A stretch of DNA of 23,938 bases, taken from Fidelibacterota bacterium (lineage in GTDB: Bacteria; Fidelibacterota; UBA2242). Position 1 is the first letter of the stretch; each line of letters begins with the position of its first letter. The position numbers and the translations under genes were made by a program. Positions 1-22,882 of this stretch are shown here, piece after piece. The DNA is taken from contig JBNGDF010000013.1 of the NCBI GenBank assembly GCA_049975265.1, positions 43,056 through 66,993 of the forward strand, in the 5' to 3' direction. The notes below the pieces were generated by a model that worked only from the letters and a program-made list of their open reading frames with translations, was not told the origin of the DNA and did not search any database.

Positions 1-269
1 TCCAGCTCCACAAATCCAAAACAAATCTGCGCACCAAGCAGGAGAGCGTCACGATGCAATCGGGAAGGTCGTCGGTTTCCCAGAAAAGCCGGGATTCCTA
101 CAGAACCCGACAGGTCGCAACCCGCTCCATTTATCATAAAAACGTTATTTACAATAGGCGTTTTTACGATGATCAATCGCAAAAACATTCACGATCATAT
201 TTTTACCATCAATCGCATACAAAATCCGGTTCCGGCAATGAAACAAAACATATCGCTCAGGATAAATTT

Positions 270-1385
270 CTATCTGGATTGAATCTGATTGATCATTTTT
301 TCCAGTTCGTTCAATCTCGCCCGGAATTGGGGGTGATCGGTAATTGAATCGTCCAGCTCGATTAATTCGTATGTCACCGGATTCACCACTTTCTGTATTT
401 CCGCCTGAACGATCTCCGTTTGCGTCGTGAGGCTGGTAATTGTCTGCAATAAATACGGATCGTTGGCATAATATTCTTCCAGAGATTTGTTACCGGCATT
501 TTTTTCAAAGGATTTCAGGCGCTTGTCAGCATAGTTTTTCTGGACAATTAAATTGGAAATATCCTGCAGCGGCTGATCCTTTTGTTGCAGATTGAACCGG
601 ATCAGACCCACATATTTTCCGAGATTTCCACAGCGGGCGATCAGCACTCCGTTCTTATTTTCAAGGCTGTGTGAGTAGCGATATGTTCCCGACTGCAGGA
701 TAAAGTCGATATCCAGTTCTTCCCCACCGAGCCTTGTCTCATCGTCACGTTCCAGGTAGGCTAACAGAATGATGTAATCTGCCCGCTTCCGGATTTCCGG
801 TAAATATTTATGAAGTGCGGCAAGCATATCGGTAAACATGACCCCTCTGACCGGTGCCTTCGGCATTGTCGTCACGCCGATGATCCCAAACTTCCTCCCT
901 GATAAATTGGTGATTAAATATGGCATAAAGAGCGGTTGAAGACTGGTACTGTCGACAATATTGGCACTGATAAACGGAAAATTGGCGATCTTTTTCAATT
1001 CCCGAATGCCCGTCAGACCTGCAGGAAAATCCCGGGCTGAAATGTTGTACGCCTGATATCCCAGATCGTTATAGCTGCGGAGCATGGTCCGGGCAATTTC
1101 CTGCCGCTTTGCCACCTCCCTGGGGCTGGGAAACAGCGAGCGGTAAAAGAGATCGCCGGCATCCAGAATCAGGGTATTACCATGCGTCCGGACATACCGT
1201 TCAATAATCGTTGCTTTCCTGGCCAGACCGCCAAGCCTGTTGGTCTTTCACCCACAGGGCTCGGTTTCACCCTGCACCGACGCCGAGAAAAGGATTGAGA
1301 ATTCCTCAGCCAGCAGTGCGGAGGCAAAGACCATCACCAGCAACCCGCACACCAGAAGTAATCGTACCGGATTCAATATTTTCAT
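270..1385 (-). CDS. Secreted UshA-like (5'-nucleotidase N-terminal/metallophosphoesterase-fold) selenoprotein, 371 aa, Sec at codon 46 (TGA 1250-1248)
   Basis: ATG at 1385 opens a signal peptide (MKILNPVRLLLVCGLLVMVFASALLA). The frame runs ...QGETEPCG-TGA-KTNRLGGLARKATIIERYVRTHGNTLILDAGDLF... with no other stop into ORF 270..1115 (1250-1115=135, same frame). GGLAR.AT and LDAGD are UshA-type motifs; FPFISANI and GIIGVT follow. Confidence 0.9.
1213..1247 (-). promoter_or_regulatory. Bacterial SECIS-like hairpin immediately 3' of the in-frame UGA
   Basis: mRNA reads UGA AAGACCAACAGG CUUGGC-GGUCUG-GCCAGG. The 6-bp stem (one G-U pair) spans 1235-1218. The G-initiated loop starts 18 nt after the UGA, and GGUCUG also occurs at the apex of the E. 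coli fdhF SECIS. Confidence 0.75.
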
Positions 1386-1410: not shown

Positions 1411-2448
1411 TCATTCCCGCTTAGCGATAATAGCGTTATTGCCCCGGAATTTCGCCAAAGTCGGGCAGCCGGTGCAGAACATGGCAATCCGCAGTGTCTG
1501 TACGAAAACCCGGATCAGTTTATCAATTCCTGTCATGCCAGCGTGATTTCGCGCCTGGAGAAAAGGTTTTGCGGCGGCGGCAATTTCAGCACCCAGGGCA
1601 ATTGCCTTGGCAAATTTTAATCCCGTATCAATCCCGCCCGATGCGATAACGTGAATCCGGTTGGCTTTGACGGCAGCCTGCAACGCCTCGGCAGTGGGAA
1701 TCCCCCATTCAAAAAACTGGGCGGCAACGACCCGACTCTCCGCATCAGGAATACGCTGATGCTCAATCCGCGACCACGATGTTCCCCCCGCACCGGCAAC
1801 TTCAACCCACTGGATTCCGATCTTGTGAAGTCGTCTGATCACATCTGCAGACATGCCGAATCCCACCTCTTTCACAATTATCGGATAGGGTGATGTTTCC
1901 CGCAATATTTCAATCGCGCGACTGACCCCTTTAAACTGCGGTTCGCCTTCCGGCTGCAAGACCTCCTGTAGTGGATTCAGATGAACCGAAAGGGCATCCG
2001 CATGAATCTGTTTCAATACCGTAATCAACTGGCTTGCTTTGTACTGCTGAACGATCTGGGCGGCACCGATATTGGCAATGATCGGTATATCCGGGGCACG
2101 TTCCCGGGCAATCCGATAGCTGCCGAGACAGCTGCTGCTTTCCAGTGCCGGACGAATACTACCCAATGTCAAAGCGATTCCCGCCCGATTCGCCGCCGCA
2201 GCCAGGTCGCCATTTAGTGCCTGACTCTCATCATCACCACCGCTGATTGAAGAGATCATCAGCGGTGCATTTAAGCGGTAACCGAGAAAATCGGTCTGAA
2301 TATCGACATCCTCAAAATCAATTTCGGGTAGTGCGTTATGAATAAAGTGATACCGTTCAAAACCTGTTGTTATGTCATGAAAATGAATGGGTTCGCTACC
2401 GACAATCTGCAGATGTTCCCGCTTTCGGGAAGAGATTTGCTTGACCAT
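1411..2448 (-). CDS. fni: Type 2 isopentenyl-diphosphate delta-isomerase (FMN-dependent)
   Basis: Motifs RKREHL, HNALPEIDF, PLMISSISGG, ANIGAAQ, HLNPLQEVLQPEG, PIIVKEVGFG, AGAGGTSW, WGIPTA, IASGGI. Confidence 0.95.
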   Translation of the reverse strand: MVKQISSRKREHLQIVGSEPIHFHDITTGFERYHFIHNALPEIDFEDVDIQTDFLGYRLNAPLMISSISGGDDESQALNGDLAAAANRAGIALTLGSIRPALESSSCLGSYRIARERAPDIPIIANIGAAQIVQQYKASQLITVLKQIHADALSVHLNPLQEVLQPEGEPQFKGVSRAIEILRETSPYPIIVKEVGFGMSADVIRRLHKIGIQWVEVAGAGGTSWSRIEHQRIPDAESRVVAAQFFEWGIPTAEALQAAVKANRIHVIASGGIDTGLKFAKAIALGAEIAAAAKPFLQARNHAGMTGIDKLIRVFVQTLRIAMFCTGCPTLAKFRGNNAIIAKRE

Positions 2449-4768: not shown

Positions 4769-6076
4769 TTAGTCTTTCCAGACCGCCACTGCTTTTCTGA
4801 ACTGTTCAGTAGTTAACTCTTCCCGTGAAAAACGCTCCACGTCGGATTTGTTCACTTTAAGGTACAGAGTCCCGGGCGTTTCTGTCCAGAAGCGGTGACT
4901 GAGATTCACCGTCACCAGGATCGTTTCATCCTTTTTCACGCTGCGCAAGGTGGCACCATACTGACCGAGCACATCAATAATTTGTGCGGTGATCGCATCC
5001 ATCAGCGAGTCGATTTTAACATCCGGTTCCGTCACCTGCACATCAAAATCGACATCCACCGTGTCGTCATCACCGTGTACGAAAATTCGATTTTCTCTGC
5101 CTCCCGGCAATGCCGGCGCAGCCGGCGGAACGGGTAACTCAGCCTCTTCTAATTCACGGATACGCTCTTCATGTCTGTGAACATCCGTTTCAAACCAGCG
5201 CAGCTTTTTCTCGAGGTCACCGGCTTTCTTGATGATAATCTTTTCCAGGTGATCGTATCCCGTCACCGGCGTTAAGAAGATGACACCATAGTCCTCCAGA
5301 TACATGGCGCGGGTTTTCCCCGTCCAATGAATCCAGTGGTTTTCCGTATCCGCTCCGATCACACGGTCCAGAATCCGGCTGAAAATCTCCACATCGCGGT
5401 TGGCTTCGGTTTCGTAAAGACGTTCGATCTTGATCCTGGCTTTGAGCTTGGCTTCATTCATCTTACCAAGCCGGTAATCATTCAGGTCCCGCACCAGCGC
5501 ACAGGCACGCAACTGCTCCGGTACTTTCAGCTCCTCTGTGTTTTCGATTTTAAATCCCTTTGAGTTGCGGATATTCACACAGATCCGCTCGCGCTCGGGA
5601 AGAGATTTGACAGTACTGGCATAATCCCGAAAAAATTCGATGATCAGTTCCTCTGTTTTTTGCAGGGATTTTTCAATTTCCGCTTTTTCGTCCACCGTCG
5701 CCGAGTCTGTCTTTTTATCCTTGTCGAGAGTTACAATAATCTTTTCCTCTGAATCGGTATCGATCTTAACACGGGGCAGGGTCCGAATGGAACGGGTGAT
5801 CACGTCAGAGAGGCTCAGCAGTCCGTTGCTTTGCAGATCAAACATCAGTCCGAAGTCCTCCAGATAGAGACCGTGCACCTGATCTCCACCGCTAAATAGA
5901 AAGGGGCTTTCCTGAATGATCAACTGATCGAGAACCCCTTCCAGGACTTTAATGTCCTGCTTAATTTCCTCCTTCTGATCCGCAGCGGGCGTCCCGGAAA
6001 GCCCGCTGGAAAGCAACATTAAAAAGAGGATGAAAACCATCACCGGGATAACCAGCAAATCATTTAACTTCTTCAT
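4769..6076 (-). CDS. Exported hypothetical protein with two tandem copies of one domain; third gene of the ECF operon
   Basis: Likely start is ATG 6076 after AAGGAG (MKKLNDLLVIPVMVFILFLMLL.., signal or anchor), not the track start at 6160. Internal repeat GLYLEDFGLMF / AMYLEDYGVIF. Confidence 0.8.
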   Translation of the reverse strand: MKKLNDLLVIPVMVFILFLMLLSSGLSGTPAADQKEEIKQDIKVLEGVLDQLIIQESPFLFSGGDQVHGLYLEDFGLMFDLQSNGLLSLSDVITRSIRTLPRVKIDTDSEEKIIVTLDKDKKTDSATVDEKAEIEKSLQKTEELIIEFFRDYASTVKSLPERERICVNIRNSKGFKIENTEELKVPEQLRACALVRDLNDYRLGKMNEAKLKARIKIERLYETEANRDVEIFSRILDRVIGADTENHWIHWTGKTRAMYLEDYGVIFLTPVTGYDHLEKIIIKKAGDLEKKLRWFETDVHRHEERIRELEEAELPVPPAAPALPGGRENRIFVHGDDDTVDVDFDVQVTEPDVKIDSLMDAITAQIIDVLGQYGATLRSVKKDETILVTVNLSHRFWTETPGTLYLKVNKSDVERFSREELTTEQFRKAVAVWKD

Positions 6077-6131
6077 GTTTGGACTCCTTTTCTTGCATTG
6101 ACAATGTGCTCCTGTCCCCCGGATTAATTGA

Positions 6132-6794
6132 TTATCTTCCCCCACTCTGGGCACTGACATACTCGATCAATGTCCCCAACGTCCGGTCGGTCTGTTCCAG
6201 CCGCTGCGCGGTTCCGTATTGCAGCTGATCCATTACCGTTCCCACCATCCGCAGATCTTCCTCGCGCTGTCGTTCCAGCTCTTCGTAGAATTTGTCCAGC
6301 ATAACCGCCGTATCAATCTTACTGCGTTTGTCATACTCCTCAATAATGGCTGAAACAATCTGATAATTTTCCCGACGCAGCTGCTCCAGATCGGATTTCG
6401 TCACGAAATCCGCCGGATCAATGCGCTTGTGATTGAACAGTCCGGTTTCAAAGGCAAATTCCCCATCGGAAAAACGGATGCTGGTATTGAACAACGCCAA
6501 AAGTAACAGCAGCGCCGCTGTCGCTACTCCCAGCCGTCCCGCCAGAGTCCAGGATTTCAGTTGTCGGATCAATTCCGTAAACCGCCCCGTGGGTTGATTC
6601 ACAAACGTCAGATTTACATGAGGCTCCTGATCTTCCCACTGCCCCAATACCTCTGTCGTAGCCCGCAGTGCGGCATATTTCCGGCGACAAGCCGGACAGC
6701 TTTGGAGATGCATATCGAGAACTTCCTGATCCCCGGCGGAGATCTCATCATAAAGCGCGTCCATCATCAACAGACGAATATCATCACATTTCAT
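6132..6794 (-). CDS. Zinc-binding (zf-HC2/ZAS) transmembrane anti-sigma factor
   Basis: N-terminal C..IR..M..ALY and HLQSCPAC (HxxxCxxC), one TM helix (LGVATAALLLLLALF); overlaps the sigma gene by 11 nt. Confidence 0.88.
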   Translation of the reverse strand: MKCDDIRLLMMDALYDEISAGDQEVLDMHLQSCPACRRKYAALRATTEVLGQWEDQEPHVNLTFVNQPTGRFTELIRQLKSWTLAGRLGVATAALLLLLALFNTSIRFSDGEFAFETGLFNHKRIDPADFVTKSDLEQLRRENYQIVSAIIEEYDKRSKIDTAVMLDKFYEELERQREEDLRMVGTVMDQLQYGTAQRLEQTDRTLGTLIEYVSAQSGGR

Positions 6795-7386
6795 AGCTCA
6801 AATCCTCCCGGTCAACACCCCATTTCTGTAAAACCGAATGGAGGGCGTCCAGACCGTAATACATGCGTGATTTAATTGTATTTATCGGTGTTTTTAATAC
6901 ATCGGCGATTTCTGTGAATTTCATTCCGTGATACTGTTTCATAATCACCACAACCCGCTGCTCTTCCGGAATGGCGAGCAGCGCCTTTTGCAGCACGTCC
7001 GACAAATTTTCGTGATGTGCCAGTCTGGTGGTGTCCTGCTCCTCGTCTGCAATAATAATCTGCGGGGCGCCATTATCGCAATCATTGAAATCAGGGCTCT
7101 CACTCAGTGAGTAGGTAACAGATTTCCTCTTTTTCAATTCATCCCGGCAGAGATTGAGGGCAATCCGGTAAAGCCATGCTGAAAAACAGCGGCGGTCTTG
7201 CAGCTTTCCCAGCGATTTATACGCCCGGATAAAACACTGCTGCATTACATCCTTCGCCTGCTCACTGTCGCCGAGATACCTCAAAATAAAATTGTAGATC
7301 GGCTTTTCCCAGCGCCAGACCAGCGTATTGAAGGCGGCGGTGTTGCCAGCGGTAAATTCACGGATCAGGGATTCATCATTCATCAC
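6784..7386 (-). CDS. ECF RNA polymerase sigma factor (SigW/RpoE-like)
   Basis: DESLI, AFNTLV, AKDVMQQCFIRAY, FSAWLYRIALNLCRD, EIADVLKTPINTIKSRMYYG. Start is GTG 7386 or ATG 7383. Confidence 0.93.
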   Translation of the reverse strand: MMNDESLIREFTAGNTAAFNTLVWRWEKPIYNFILRYLGDSEQAKDVMQQCFIRAYKSLGKLQDRRCFSAWLYRIALNLCRDELKKRKSVTYSLSESPDFNDCDNGAPQIIIADEEQDTTRLAHHENLSDVLQKALLAIPEEQRVVVIMKQYHGMKFTEIADVLKTPINTIKSRMYYGLDALHSVLQKWGVDREDLSYEM

Positions 7387-15157: not shown

Positions 15158-15222
15158 TCTCATTTTCCTGGTTCCAAAATTGGATGCCATAGTCAAACCT
15201 GGGAATGAGAGAAGCGTCTCTC
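15158..15222. terminator. Inverted repeats between convergent genes (REP-like and/or terminator)
   Basis: TCTCATTTTCCTGGTT (15158-15173) pairs imperfectly with AACCTGGGAATGAGA (15196-15210); small hairpin GAGAGA-agcg-TCTCTC followed by a T-run. Confidence 0.5.
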
Positions 15223-15887
15223 TATTTTTTGAGCATATTATAAATTGTCTGCTCTAAAAACCGAAATCGGTTTTCGATATGGTATTGTCGTTTTTCCTTT
15301 TCCAGAACGGAACCCAGTTTGGATGTATAGTCTGTTTTCCGAAAATGTTGAATAATATCTAAAATCTCTTTCAATACTTTTTCATCATCAGGCAAGGCAA
15401 CTGCTTTTCTGGCAAGAAATTCAAGGTCGTAGGCGTCGCGGATTTCCTTTCGGTCAAGCAATGCTTCGGCTTTCATCTCCGCCATAAGAGGCAGGGCGAT
15501 TGCATTGACCATGACCTGTATCGTGCTGAATGGCGACCAGGCGATCTCCTTTTTCATGTTTTCAATGTACCTGGTTTTGTTTATCTCAATCTTCAGTTTA
15601 CGGGGATAGTGATTTGACTGAATTTCCACCAGAAACGTACGGTGTTTATCAGCCTGATCGGTCAGGGTAAATTTTTTCGACAGGTTTTCAATGATTTTAT
15701 CAAACAGCCCGGACATTTCGCCGGGTTTATATAAAAAGAAATCCAGATCAGCGGAATACCGGTCAAGACCGTGACATAGGCGTAGCATTGTCCCGCCGCC
15801 AAAGATCAGGCTCGGCAGTACCCGGCTGGAGTTCAGCAGCTCCAGGACTTCCATTTCGAACTGCTCATGCTTGTGAAAGATATTCAT
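15222..15887 (-). CDS. AbiEii/AbiGii family nucleotidyltransferase toxin (type IV TA)
   Basis: FGGGTML...GLDRYSADLDF, LKIEIN, K..ALLDR..IRDAYDL. Start is likely ATG 15887 after GGAG, overlapping the antitoxin gene. Confidence 0.88.
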   Translation of the reverse strand: MNIFHKHEQFEMEVLELLNSSRVLPSLIFGGGTMLRLCHGLDRYSADLDFFLYKPGEMSGLFDKIIENLSKKFTLTDQADKHRTFLVEIQSNHYPRKLKIEINKTRYIENMKKEIAWSPFSTIQVMVNAIALPLMAEMKAEALLDRKEIRDAYDLEFLARKAVALPDDEKVLKEILDIIQHFRKTDYTSKLGSVLEKEKRQYHIENRFRFLEQTIYNMLKK

Positions 15888-16455
15888 ACCTTCTCCACCA
15901 TTGCTTAGTCTTTTGCGGGAAAAGATCCAGCCAGGTCCCAAGCTTCTTCCGGTCCATGCGTTTCCACTCTACCGCTGAAAAATCAAATGAATAACGGTTT
16001 AATGATACCAGGTAAATAATATCCGCCATTGCTTTTTCAGGCTCGGCGATAAATAGTCCATTCTTCAGTGTAAAGCCTTTGTAATAATCGGATTTTATCA
16101 GGTGGAAAGAGAAGACCGAAGATCCAAGCATGTATTCAATGCTTCTTTTTTGGGCTATTGATTCAATCCTGCTCCGATACATCTGAGTGGAGAGCTCATA
16201 GTAATCAACTGCGCTCGATAAAGAAATATAGGATGGCACCTGGATTCGATTGGCGATTCGCAGGCGGTCTTCCATGCCAAGGTATTGCCACCTTTCTTTA
16301 ATGATATAAAGATTGTTCCGGATTCGTAAAATTTTACCGGATTTATAGTAACGACTGCACAGGACCCGTGCCGAACTTTGATTAATACCCAGCTTGCGGG
16401 CAAGCTCGTCCACCGTGAAAACAATATCGGGCAACATGTCAGAGTCAATTTTCAT
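15865..16455 (-). CDS. AbiEi-type antitoxin / wHTH transcriptional regulator (type IV TA)
   Basis: N-terminal wHTH (FTVDELARKLG...G.ILRIRNNLY), PSYISL.SA..YY, AEPEKAMAD; directly upstream of AbiEii. Confidence 0.88.
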   Translation of the reverse strand: MKIDSDMLPDIVFTVDELARKLGINQSSARVLCSRYYKSGKILRIRNNLYIIKERWQYLGMEDRLRIANRIQVPSYISLSSAVDYYELSTQMYRSRIESIAQKRSIEYMLGSSVFSFHLIKSDYYKGFTLKNGLFIAEPEKAMADIIYLVSLNRYSFDFSAVEWKRMDRKKLGTWLDLFPQKTKQWWRRYEYLSQA

Positions 16456-16808: not shown

Positions 16809-18683
16809 CTAATCAAATCTCAGCAGGGCAACCGTACCGTCCATCGCCGTCGCCACGACCCGTCTCCCATCGAGTGGAACAACGGTATTAATCAGGGCAA
16901 CACTGAGGCGGTGGATACCGATCGTCTCTCCGGTTTCCGCGTTCAGGGCATAAATATAGCCGTCCTTAGTGCCGAAGAAAAGGGTGCCCTCCTTCTCCAC
17001 CGGCATTGACGGATCAATATCATAACCGTAACCGACGTTTTCAATCCAGACTGGCTTTAATTCACCTGCTTTCGGAGCAATGGCAATTACTGTATCCCAC
17101 ATCGTTCGGGCATAAATAACTGATTTATCCTGTGAAATACCGATTGTCTCGCGAACTTTGAATTTATTCGACCTCCAGAGCGTTTCTCCGTTGCGGGCAT
17201 TAATACAGGATAAATACCGATCCGGCGCTGCGATAAACACCTTATTCATCGTCGCAACCGGCCAGACCGCCGCCGGAGAATAGAGAGTCCCCGGTAGACC
17301 AGCCGCCCATTTCCAGCGCAGCCGACCGGTCTTTTTTTCCAAAGCATAGAGGTGCTCATCCCAGGCACCGAAAATGACCAGATTTTTATAAATACACGGT
17401 TTCGCTTCCACGTACCCCGGAACGCCTTCGTATTCCCAGGTCAATTTTCCGGTATTCAGATTCAGGCAGCGAAACTTACCGTCGCTGGCGCCAACAAAAA
17501 CCCGTTTTTTTTCAAGCGCCGGAATTGATACCAGCGGTGCAGTAGTTTTATATTGCCAGTGCAACCTGCCGTTTTTTTCATCCAGACAGTAAACAGAGGA
17601 ATCGGTGGATGTGATCACAATCTGCCCTTTGCTAACCGCCGGAGTGGAATAAATCGCCTGCCCGGTCTGAAAACGCCAGACCGGCTCACCACTCGCCAAA
17701 CTATAGGCTTGCACCGCCCCGGAAGCGTTTGCCACGACAACGATATTCCGCCCGACCGCCGGTGACCCGGCTATCGCCCAACCGGTTTTGCGCATCCAGA
17801 CCGGTCTGACACCGGGATATTCCTGATTGACGCTGAAATCGGGTCGCTGATAATGAGTGGAATCCGCCCGCCAGTTGTGGGTTTTGAGCGGCAGCGTCGC
17901 CCAGGGAGCCTGAACTGTACCATCCAGATGGCGTTCCTGAAACAGGACCGAATCCGGTCGCACGGTCACAACGGTATAGCCGCCGGATTCGTCGCGCCCC
18001 CGCAACAGGGAGCGGCTCATCACGCCGGGAATGCTTTCGTAATTGGTCAGACGGTTACGGTGTCCATGCCCGTGCAGAATCGCCTGAATGTTGTAGTTTT
18101 TTATAATTGATACAACTTCAAACCAGTTACTGACCGACTCATCCAGCGGATAATGATTGATCAGAAAAATAGGTTGAGTGTGATCGGGAATTTCCGCCAG
18201 TATTTTTTTCAGCCAGCGGAGTTTGTCGGGCGTGACATAGCCGTCGCCCATGCGCAGCAGCGGTCCCTGATCGAACCCGATGAAGCGAATGCCCTGATAT
18301 TCAAAATTAAATCTATCTTCCCCGAAAAGCGCGGCGTATTTCCGGGTGCCTGATGCCGACCACTTTGTATCGTGATTGCCGGGAATGATGTAATACGGCA
18401 GGCGCAAGTGACTCAGAATCGCAGCCGCCGTATCTAAGCAGCCACCGATATCATACTCGGTGATATCACCGGAGATGATTGTGAAAGCGAGGTTCTCCCG
18501 AGAATTGACATCCGCCACCGCCAGACGCAAATCTTCCGCTCCGGTTCGTCCGCCCACATGGGTATCCGTCAACCAGGCGAAGCAAAAAGTATCCGATCCT
18601 GATTCCGCCCGCAGCAAACCGCTAATCAGTAAAACCAGTATGACTATTTTTCGATTCACAAGTTTAATACTCCCAATATTCAT
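16809..18683 (-). CDS. Secreted calcineurin-like metallophosphoesterase fused to PQQ/BamB-like beta-propeller repeats
   Basis: TDTHVG, SGDITE, PGNHD, NHYP and HGHGH motifs, followed by repeated S.P.....V..G..DG..Y.L...TG...W units. Confidence 0.92.
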   Translation of the reverse strand: MNIGSIKLVNRKIVILVLLISGLLRAESGSDTFCFAWLTDTHVGGRTGAEDLRLAVADVNSRENLAFTIISGDITEYDIGGCLDTAAAILSHLRLPYYIIPGNHDTKWSASGTRKYAALFGEDRFNFEYQGIRFIGFDQGPLLRMGDGYVTPDKLRWLKKILAEIPDHTQPIFLINHYPLDESVSNWFEVVSIIKNYNIQAILHGHGHRNRLTNYESIPGVMSRSLLRGRDESGGYTVVTVRPDSVLFQERHLDGTVQAPWATLPLKTHNWRADSTHYQRPDFSVNQEYPGVRPVWMRKTGWAIAGSPAVGRNIVVVANASGAVQAYSLASGEPVWRFQTGQAIYSTPAVSKGQIVITSTDSSVYCLDEKNGRLHWQYKTTAPLVSIPALEKKRVFVGASDGKFRCLNLNTGKLTWEYEGVPGYVEAKPCIYKNLVIFGAWDEHLYALEKKTGRLRWKWAAGLPGTLYSPAAVWPVATMNKVFIAAPDRYLSCINARNGETLWRSNKFKVRETIGISQDKSVIYARTMWDTVIAIAPKAGELKPVWIENVGYGYDIDPSMPVEKEGTLFFGTKDGYIYALNAETGETIGIHRLSVALINTVVPLDGRRVVATAMDGTVALLRFD

Positions 18684-22164: not shown

Positions 22165-22366
22165 ATATGATTTTTGTCGTCGGGTGGCTGTATTGTTCAA
22201 TTGCTATTTGGAATGATCACAGGCTCGACCTTCGTAAAATCATTTATTCCCGAGCGTAAGGATTTTTACGAATTACTGGTGTGTCAATCTTTATACAACC
22301 ATGCAAATTGAAACCCCGCCTTTAAAAATACAAGGTTGTATTTAAAACTGTGATAATGATTTTTTA

Positions 22367-22395
22367 TTGCGGTAATACCGGTAATACCGTATATT
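22367..22395 (+). promoter_or_regulatory. TA promoter with tandem palindromic operator
   Basis: TTGCGG-17-TATATT, overlapped by GGTAATACC twice (22371-22379, 22380-22388); each copy is a GGTA-N-TACC palindrome. Confidence 0.7.
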
Positions 22396-22419
22396 ACCAA
22401 CAGGATTTTTGGAGTTAAT

Positions 22420-22635
22420 ATGAAACCGGTAACCTTTAAAATTGATGAAGAACTTATTAGTGAGATTGACGCTCTGGCGCAGGAAGTCCACGAGAACCGC
22501 AGTTCGCTGATCAAGAAAGCCATCACATTCTATCTTGACAATTACGATGGCGTCATCGCCAAAGCCCGGCAGGATGATCCGGACAGCGTTATGATCGCAC
22601 ATGAAGATGTGCTGAAAGAATATGGGCTCCTGTAA
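22420..22635 (+). CDS. Ribbon-helix-helix (CopG-like) antitoxin
   Basis: MKPVTFKIDEEL..EID.LA....NRSSLIKKAI, acidic C-terminus (HEDVLKE), GGAG RBS, overlaps the toxin gene. Confidence 0.88.
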   Translation: MKPVTFKIDEELISEIDALAQEVHENRSSLIKKAITFYLDNYDGVIAKARQDDPDSVMIAHEDVLKEYGLL

Positions 22636-22882
22636 AATTCAGTGGGATTCACGGGCGCTAAAGGAGCTGCGTAAACTTCCGCAGGAAACCGCTGTTCGTA
22701 TTTTAAAAGCCGTTAGCGGTCTAACCGATGATCCTTTGTCCGGGCTACCTCTTAAAGGTGCATTTCAGGATTTTCGTAAATTGCGCGTTGGTGAATATCG
22801 CGTCATCTATTCATTTCTGAAAGATGTTGCTATAATTCAAATTTTGCGGGTAGCGTACCGGCAGGAAGTCTACCGTTCGTAA
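22622..22882 (+). CDS. relE: RelE/ParE family type II toxin
   Basis: ALKELRKL, PLKG, RKLRVGEYRVIY, VAYRQEVY. Confidence 0.88.
   Translation: MGSCKIQWDSRALKELRKLPQETAVRILKAVSGLTDDPLSGLPLKGAFQDFRKLRVGEYRVIYSFLKDVAIIQILRVAYRQEVYRS

Follow-up and report, generated by a model that had tools for sequence, protein, structure and literature searches.

The question raised by this locus is whether two adjacent reading frames, separated by a TGA codon, are the remains of a broken gene or a single gene in which the TGA encodes selenocysteine (Sec). The window, by which we mean the whole stretch of 23,938 nucleotides that was analysed, had been described in a first-pass annotation as holding one secreted UshA-like coding sequence read through UGA. 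On the minus strand the frame 1385..270 spans 371 residues and its only internal stop is the TGA at codon 46 (window 1250-1248), and the plus strand of the same interval is full of stops. The arrangement described earlier could be reproduced in full: a signal peptide, EPCG, the TGA, and then 44 sense codons (from 1247) that lead to the GTG at 1115 and are in frame with the ORF 270..1115, giving the peptide context GETEPCG-U-KTNRLGGLARKAT...LDAGD. We regard it as close to certain that these frames form a single gene and that the in-frame TGA encodes selenocysteine. The features of the gene are:

270..1385, minus strand: coding sequence of a UshA-like selenoprotein without a haem domain, 371 aa, with ATG at 1385 and a TAG stop at 272-270
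1308..1385, minus strand: signal peptide predicted for the Sec pathway, residues 1-26, with likely cleavage between ALLA and EE (hydropathy and orthologue alignment)
1248..1256, minus strand: Cys44-Gly45-Sec46 motif, with the TGA at 1250-1248

The N-terminus has a basic start followed by a hydrophobic segment whose Kyte-Doolittle mean over 11 residues reaches 3.15, and past the signal peptide hydropathy gives no strongly hydrophobic or transmembrane segment (best 19-residue mean 0.98). In the orthologue alignment the conserved part starts at EEFSILF. Judged from hydropathy and conservation the protein is likely to be exported, as had been claimed.

The most direct evidence on the TGA comes from homologues, where the first-pass annotation had expected Cys or TGA at codon 46 and had taken Trp at this position as evidence against Sec. 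The equivalent codon was read in 94 distinct homologous loci, made up of the loci from relative genomes and the best 80 GTDB loci (2 of them without a motif match) after removal of duplicates; the GTDB search used two patterns, one that required Cys and another that was independent of codon 46. The codon is TGA in 85 loci and Cys (TGT or TGC) in the other 9, and TGG occurs in none. Cys44 is invariant, and no motif-bearing locus has anything but TGA or Cys at position 46. The TGA is retained in two phyla and in homologues as distant as about 25% identity, and is exchanged only with Cys. A set of 30 Desulfobacterota loci, one of which (L120) is already counted above, gave 25 TGA and 3 TGT, the remaining 2 having no match to the motif. 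At the level of genomes, an orthologue (E <= 1e-35) was found in 35 of the 41 searched and carries TGA in 34, with selA present in 32 of those 34; the two TGA genomes without a selA match are 71% and 82% complete, and both have a tRNA-Sec. The relative genome G027 (99% complete), which gave no match for selA, selB or tRNA-Sec, has a syntenic C-P-T-C form, and G040 is without both the Sec machinery and an orthologue. The homologue P0021 (41% identity) reads PCGC at the motif. In a FastTree tree of the N-terminal 290 residues, built with half of the TGA loci and with the W-form proteins left out, this Cys form falls inside the Sec clade, and the haem-less forms from Marinisomatota group together with weak deep support. 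The close homologues that carry a title are from Candidatus Neomarinimicrobiota/Marinimicrobia, which makes this phylum the very likely origin of the window.

Protein databases would at first sight suggest otherwise. Almost half of the motif-bearing database proteins (49/104) read PCGW, and the 40 closest database proteins comprise 36 truncated ones that begin after the TGA, 3 with W and 1 with Cys. These entries are what could be offered for a true stop (a pseudogene, a split gene or an assembly error) or for Trp under another genetic code, a reading to which we give hardly any weight. The two PCGW proteins that were traced to DNA (P0005 and P0006, 2 of 49) both come from TGA, as they are identical to the TGA loci L016 and L053 across the 40-60 residues that follow the W. 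The other PCGW proteins are mostly on short contigs, and the marine orthologues in GTDB all have TGA. We infer that the PCGW entries were produced by gene callers choosing code 4. In the host itself TGA is an ordinary stop, ending 326 of its 1124 long non-overlapping ORFs as well as the gene directly upstream. Code 4 was therefore rejected, given also that no locus has TGG. A sequencing or assembly error, or a recent nonsense mutation, was rejected as well: the TGA is found in 34 of the 35 genomes with an orthologue, and the letters of the codon (1248-1250) and of the hairpin discussed below are unchanged in the contigs that cover them from three of four runs, which stem from three studies and of which one is possibly the source sample; the fourth run gave no contig. 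The truncated database entries bear out the earlier expectation that standard annotation would split or shorten the gene.

The host also has the means to read the codon. Profile searches of the genome, which is 95% complete, found selA (526 bits), selB (380 bits), selD (396 bits) and a tRNA-Sec (56 bits) with anticodon TCA, all above their cut-offs and with selA and selB adjacent. The look for the sel genes that had been proposed thus had a positive outcome, and the earlier view that this organism uses Sec holds. The selD match lies within a 747-aa ORF (host C19:16971-19211, L004) that has no in-frame TGA, and whose N-terminal half, judged from its sequence, resembles a NifS-type cysteine desulfurase or Sec lyase.

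Downstream of the TGA lies the second element that recoding requires:

1218..1235, minus strand: bacterial SECIS hairpin with a 6-bp stem and a GGUCUG loop, overlapping codons L51-G52-G53-L54-A55-R56

The hairpin CUUGGC/GGUCUG/GCCAGG has a folding energy of -9.8 kcal/mol. It had been placed 18 nt downstream of the UGA, which is right for the GGUCUG loop but not for the stem, which itself begins 12 nt after the UGA. According to the parts of PMC13188914 covered, a bSECIS element has a 3-9 nt loop with a G within its first two nucleotides, a 4-16 bp stem, a spacing of 16-37 nt and an MFE <= -7.5; the 6-nt loop, the 6 bp stem, the 18 nt spacing and the energy of this hairpin all fall in these ranges. 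The E. coli fdhF SECIS has GGUCUG at the identical 18-nt offset from its UGA; it differs in that the hairpin here pairs over 6 uninterrupted positions and lacks both a bulged U and a conserved lower stem. Taken by itself, the folding energy does not exceed chance (z from +0.64 to -1.47 against shuffles). The support for the hairpin is comparative and comes from codon fixation and covariation. The codons for L-G-G-L-A-R are held to GGC-GGT-CT(G/T) in 83 of 85 TGA loci, compared to 2 of 9 Cys loci, where 0.06 would be expected for GGC-GGT-CT from the Gly usage in the same genes. The spacing from UGA to hairpin is likewise fixed in 83/85, and a stem of at least 5 bp around the GGUCU loop forms in 75 of the 85 as opposed to 1.8% of synonymous recodings. 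For covariation we used 44 rows (43 of the 49 loci of the 6-nt-loop class plus the window, which replaced its own locus). In these, 98.9% of the cells pair and there are 19 double changes, a level that none of 500 shuffles attained and to which slid controls, with at most 56% of cells pairing, do not come near. As the rows are related to each other and were picked by their best stem with a 6-nt loop, they are biased toward that structure and this result should be read as supportive rather than as a probability. With the codon, the hairpin and the machinery taken together, we have very little doubt that the TGA is recoded through SelB and the SECIS. Two Cys forms keep the SECIS codons. One of them (L099:491-1654, TGC) still has GGCGGTCTT in a genome with selA and looks like a recent Sec-to-Cys change; L038 likewise retains the SECIS codons.

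The protein belongs to a family that is already known, and the haem-less form is a further member of it. Its CxU in a PCGU..GGL.R context is that of the COG0737 UshA-like CxU family, whose 2008 listing from GOS data counted 76 selenoproteins and 92 Cys sequences (PMC2398784). A fragment in the supplement of that work by Zhang and Gladyshev, GQLDPCGUKKNPMGGLSRR, matches the marine Marinisomatota orthologues L071 and L085, so that marine members of the same lineage were among the 2008 data. In the parts of that source covered there is no substantive difference from our protein, other than that the entries are read fragments without a function test. Reviews from 2022 and 2026 list the family along with NF041198 (PMC9312934, PMC13188914). 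The covered portions of these three papers give no function for it, in line with the first-pass description of the family as described and functionally uncharacterised. The best family match is NCBIfam NF041198 (UshA_like_PCGU; E 6e-66, residues 23-369 on model positions 18-382 of 519). With U read as C, the score of 223 bits stays below the cut-off of 275: the PCGU/PCGC motif on a UshA-like domain is there, and the C-terminal part of the model is not. The 371-aa protein has no CxxCH and thus no C-terminal cytochrome c domain of the kind that passing members have. None of the 12 haem-less homologues reaches the cut-off and each of the 3 haem-fused ones passes it, which suggests that the tail of the model may be a multihaem cytochrome c domain. 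Because the short form misses this cut-off, public protein sets hold a shortened product of the gene or one wrongly translated with Trp; correcting this matters for a gene found in most of the Marinisomatota genomes searched. A second NCBIfam model, NF049981 (UshA-like (seleno)protein family 2), describes the same fold with Sec in the same loop; it has a CxxU motif where ours is CxU, and it scored 51 bits against a cut-off of 140. Pfam gave no match to the selenoprotein.

What the protein could do is best approached through its fold:

273..1307, minus strand: mature domain with the 5'-nucleotidase N-terminal (calcineurin-like) fold and a degenerate metal site (AlphaFold2, structure alignment)

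The AlphaFold2 model, in which U was modelled as C, has a pLDDT of 94.6. By VIA-align it matches 3ivd (Z 33.1, rmsd 2.2 A over 275 residues) and residues 32-362 of UshA in 1ush (Z 32.4), and it aligns to SoxB at Z ~31. The calcineurin-like N-domain fold is thus present, with an added pair of long helices inserted at approximately residues 277-332. The metal and catalytic positions read S36, Q38, D78, A117, R118, Y210, G233 and Y235, so that only 1 of 8 is kept. The set of dimetal ligands and catalytic His (DxH, GD, GNH, H, GHxH) is therefore lost. Among 69 TGA loci 1-3 of the 8 residues are kept, compared to 7-8 in nine true nucleotidases; Asn116 is kept in none of the 69, His43 in 46 and Asp84 in 53, and the last two counts would be compatible with a metal site that has been remodelled. 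The C-terminal substrate domain is missing too, as there is no Pfam match to 5_nucleotid_C and the model aligns only to UshA 32-362. Compared with E. coli UshA, CD73 and CpdB, the protein shares the N-domain fold (Z 32-33, rmsd ~2.1-2.4 A, ~270 residues) and the predicted export; it differs in having no C-terminal substrate domain, 1/8 of the metal and catalytic residues, a CxU loop and the helical insertion. The covered literature on the 5'-nucleotidase architecture (PMC10454023) and on UshA/CpdB, where His117 is essential (PMC7922932), gives the background to this comparison. With the dimetal site and catalytic His lost and no substrate-binding C-domain, nucleotidase or other hydrolase activity is unlikely, and the sequence points to a likely pseudo-phosphatase whose conserved chemistry would be in the CxU loop. 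The label UshA-like therefore holds for the fold and not for a nucleotidase function.

Neighbouring genes give further indications. The gene directly upstream is:

1411..2448, minus strand: type 2 isopentenyl-diphosphate isomerase (IDI-2), TIGR02151 above cut-off

It lies 25 nt upstream of the selenoprotein gene, is full-length and ends in TGA as a true stop. The SDR gene, IDI-2 and the selenoprotein gene are probably in one transcript; a promoter-like match at 3299-3271 is not above chance counts. In relatives the arrangement with IDI-2 upstream recurs at 32 of 36 loci, and the gene is syntenic within the order. A functional link to it was rejected, as the synteny is confined to the order and is absent in marine and Desulfobacterota loci.

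Recurring partners are seen in other genomes. At 35 of the best 80 GTDB loci the immediate neighbour in the same orientation is a gene for a rhodanese, for MauE or, in 33 cases, for each of them; it lies upstream at 11 loci and downstream at 24, and some loci have the two as a fusion. Marine-type Marinisomatota, or MAGs of that cluster, account for 34 of the 35 and a Syntrophobacterales genome for the other. Within flanks of about 1.5 kb the genes are adjacent neither at the present locus nor in any of the 36 closer-relative loci, and the pair occurs in 1 of the 30 Desulfobacterota loci (1.5 kb flanks), that one being the query's own genome. Since it is scarce elsewhere, the adjacency comes down to one marine lineage and one outside genome, and members of the former are kin rather than independent cases. 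The neighbouring rhodanese has an invariant CxxxxC and matches NF041203 and TsoB below cut-off; TsoB is listed with a UxxxxU motif akin to the rhodanese CxxxxC (PMC13188914, parts covered). On host contig C22 (L125:435-1432, minus strand) there are overlapping genes for a CxxxxC rhodanese and a CGC-motif MauE. This MauE is the only one in the host genome and the sole DsbB-like oxidase found, with no match to DsbB, VKOR or DsbA-type (Thioredoxin_4) proteins in the 95% complete assembly. Nine of the 41 relatives gave no match to MauE, among them G037, a genome with the TGA form at 96% completeness, and G027, one with the Cys form at 99%. Fusions occur elsewhere in the family, either to cytochrome c554 or to both DsbA and c554. 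Two of about 1200 aa (P0128 and P0131) have two UshA-like domains, a DsbA-like domain and a cytochrome c554. At another locus (L117:2-9207) a CPTU form lies between an apparent formate dehydrogenase operon and an apparent selA.

According to the parts covered of a recent preprint, a CGC-motif MauE can replace DsbB in E. coli (bioRxiv 10.64898/2026.03.05.709764). The host fits this disulfide pathway in that it encodes a MauE with the CGC motif and that neither DsbB nor VKOR could be detected. The covered main text of the preprint makes no mention of rhodanese, UshA or selenium, and we infer the tie to the selenoprotein from neighbours in other genomes. A complex of DoxX and a rhodanese oxidoreductase is described in mycobacteria (PMC6930017, parts covered), and in our incomplete coverage of the literature we found no paper on MauE and rhodanese with DoxX or a selenoprotein.

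These observations can be combined into a proposed mechanism. SelB would bind the GGUCU-looped hairpin 18 nt downstream and deliver Sec-tRNA; the sequence and the machinery are observed, and the recoding would follow from them. The predicted 26-residue signal peptide would then be cleaved, and the protein may fold in the periplasm as a 5'-nucleotidase N-domain. From the alignment, the loss of the dimetal site and catalytic His and the lack of a C-domain would make hydrolysis unlikely, and the Cys44-Gly-Sec46 loop could instead cycle between dithiol/selenol and selenylsulfide on an envelope substrate. Re-oxidation in the long members may proceed by the fused multihaem cytochrome c, and in the haem-less forms it might go through the rhodanese, with its two cysteines, and on to MauE, a membrane oxidase resembling DsbB. 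A thiol/selenol redox role in the envelope is suggested by the haem and DsbA fusions and by the rhodanese-MauE pair next to the gene in marine relatives, and we lean slightly toward it. The specific route through MauE is a good deal less assured and is put forward as a tentative proposal. Equally speculative is the extension of it across Marinisomatota, in which the haem-less form might be the soluble arm of a DsbA-free relay from the CxU protein to the CxxxxC rhodanese, MauE and quinone. This would be a Sec redox enzyme that uses the fold of a defunct phosphatase, and its setting would be genomes without a recognised DsbA, DsbB or VKOR. Should the relay be true, an orphan family of selenoproteins would gain a function and the MauE pathway its missing DsbA step. 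The lost metal site and the recurring redox partners by themselves already narrow the function of a family listed since 2008.

Other functions for the CxU loop have to be weighed against this redox role. Cys44 and Sec46 could be ligands for a metal or metalloid (Zn, Cu, Hg, As) in place of the lost His and Asp, making the protein a periplasmic metal-binding, carrier or detoxifying selenoprotein. The CxU motif comes directly after the first metal-binding strand, D78 is D or N in 69/69 TGA loci and H43 is often kept, but the window protein itself has Q at the His43 position. A Syntrophaceae locus (L118) has two copies of the gene among what by sequence inspection are ACR3-transporter-like and ArsR-like genes, yet such an arsenic-like context is seen in just 1 of the best 80 loci, and the c554 and DsbA fusions and the MauE neighbourhood are better suited to electron or disulfide transfer. 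We consider the ligand role unlikely. The two UshA-like genes of that locus (L118:2080-6068) carry CGC and CPSU.

A transferase is less probable again. Here Sec46 would be the nucleophile in a transfer of sulfur, selenium or sulfonate, acting on a carrier protein as SoxB does, with the rhodanese as sulfur carrier. SoxB has the same fold (TIGR04486 E 6e-15), and the neighbouring rhodanese-fold protein is related to the selenoprotein rhodanese families NF041203 and TsoB. However, SoxB fits no better than ordinary nucleotidases (54 bits against a cut-off of 550), and it requires the dimetal site that the window protein has lost; the rhodanese, having two cysteines, is closer to a disulfide carrier. 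The remaining alternative, to which we attach only a very small probability, is that a metal-dependent nucleotidase or phosphodiesterase activity is retained and the CxU is regulatory or structural. The fold is fully preserved, and in the covered parts of PMC7922932 a lone CpdB N-domain retains phosphodiesterase activity, but this is when its site is intact; here 7 of the 8 metal and catalytic residues are replaced, and the host has two other, longer 5'-nucleotidase-like genes. The envelope redox role is thus the one we prefer for the CxU loop.

The selenoprotein is not alone in its genome. A motif scan had suggested that it was the only one, and this was rejected when a coding-score scan of read-through candidates, in which the best 70 of 354 were inspected and which is not exhaustive, turned up two others. 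One is a PrxU selenoperoxiredoxin on host contig C1 (L127:191-886, minus strand; NF040737 398 bits, cut-off 270). The other, on contig C6 (L126:189-1244, minus strand), is a predicted exported thioredoxin-like UxxC selenoprotein with TPR repeats; it has a GGUCU motif about 26 nt past its UGA and no NCBIfam model over cut-off.

Several other features of the window may be useful to note. Just left of its position 1 a block of N, flanked on each side by a short duplicated sequence, is probably a scaffold join, and the plus-strand ORF 54..347 that starts there is likely spurious. At 4769-7386 (minus strand) there are an ECF sigma factor, a zf-HC2 anti-sigma factor and a 463-aa protein without a family match that is syntenic in close relatives. 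An AbiEi/AbiEii-type toxin-antitoxin pair is found at 15222-16455 (minus strand), a calcineurin-like phosphoesterase fused to a PQQ-type beta-propeller at 16809-18683 (minus strand), and a ParE/RelE toxin gene at 22342-22882.
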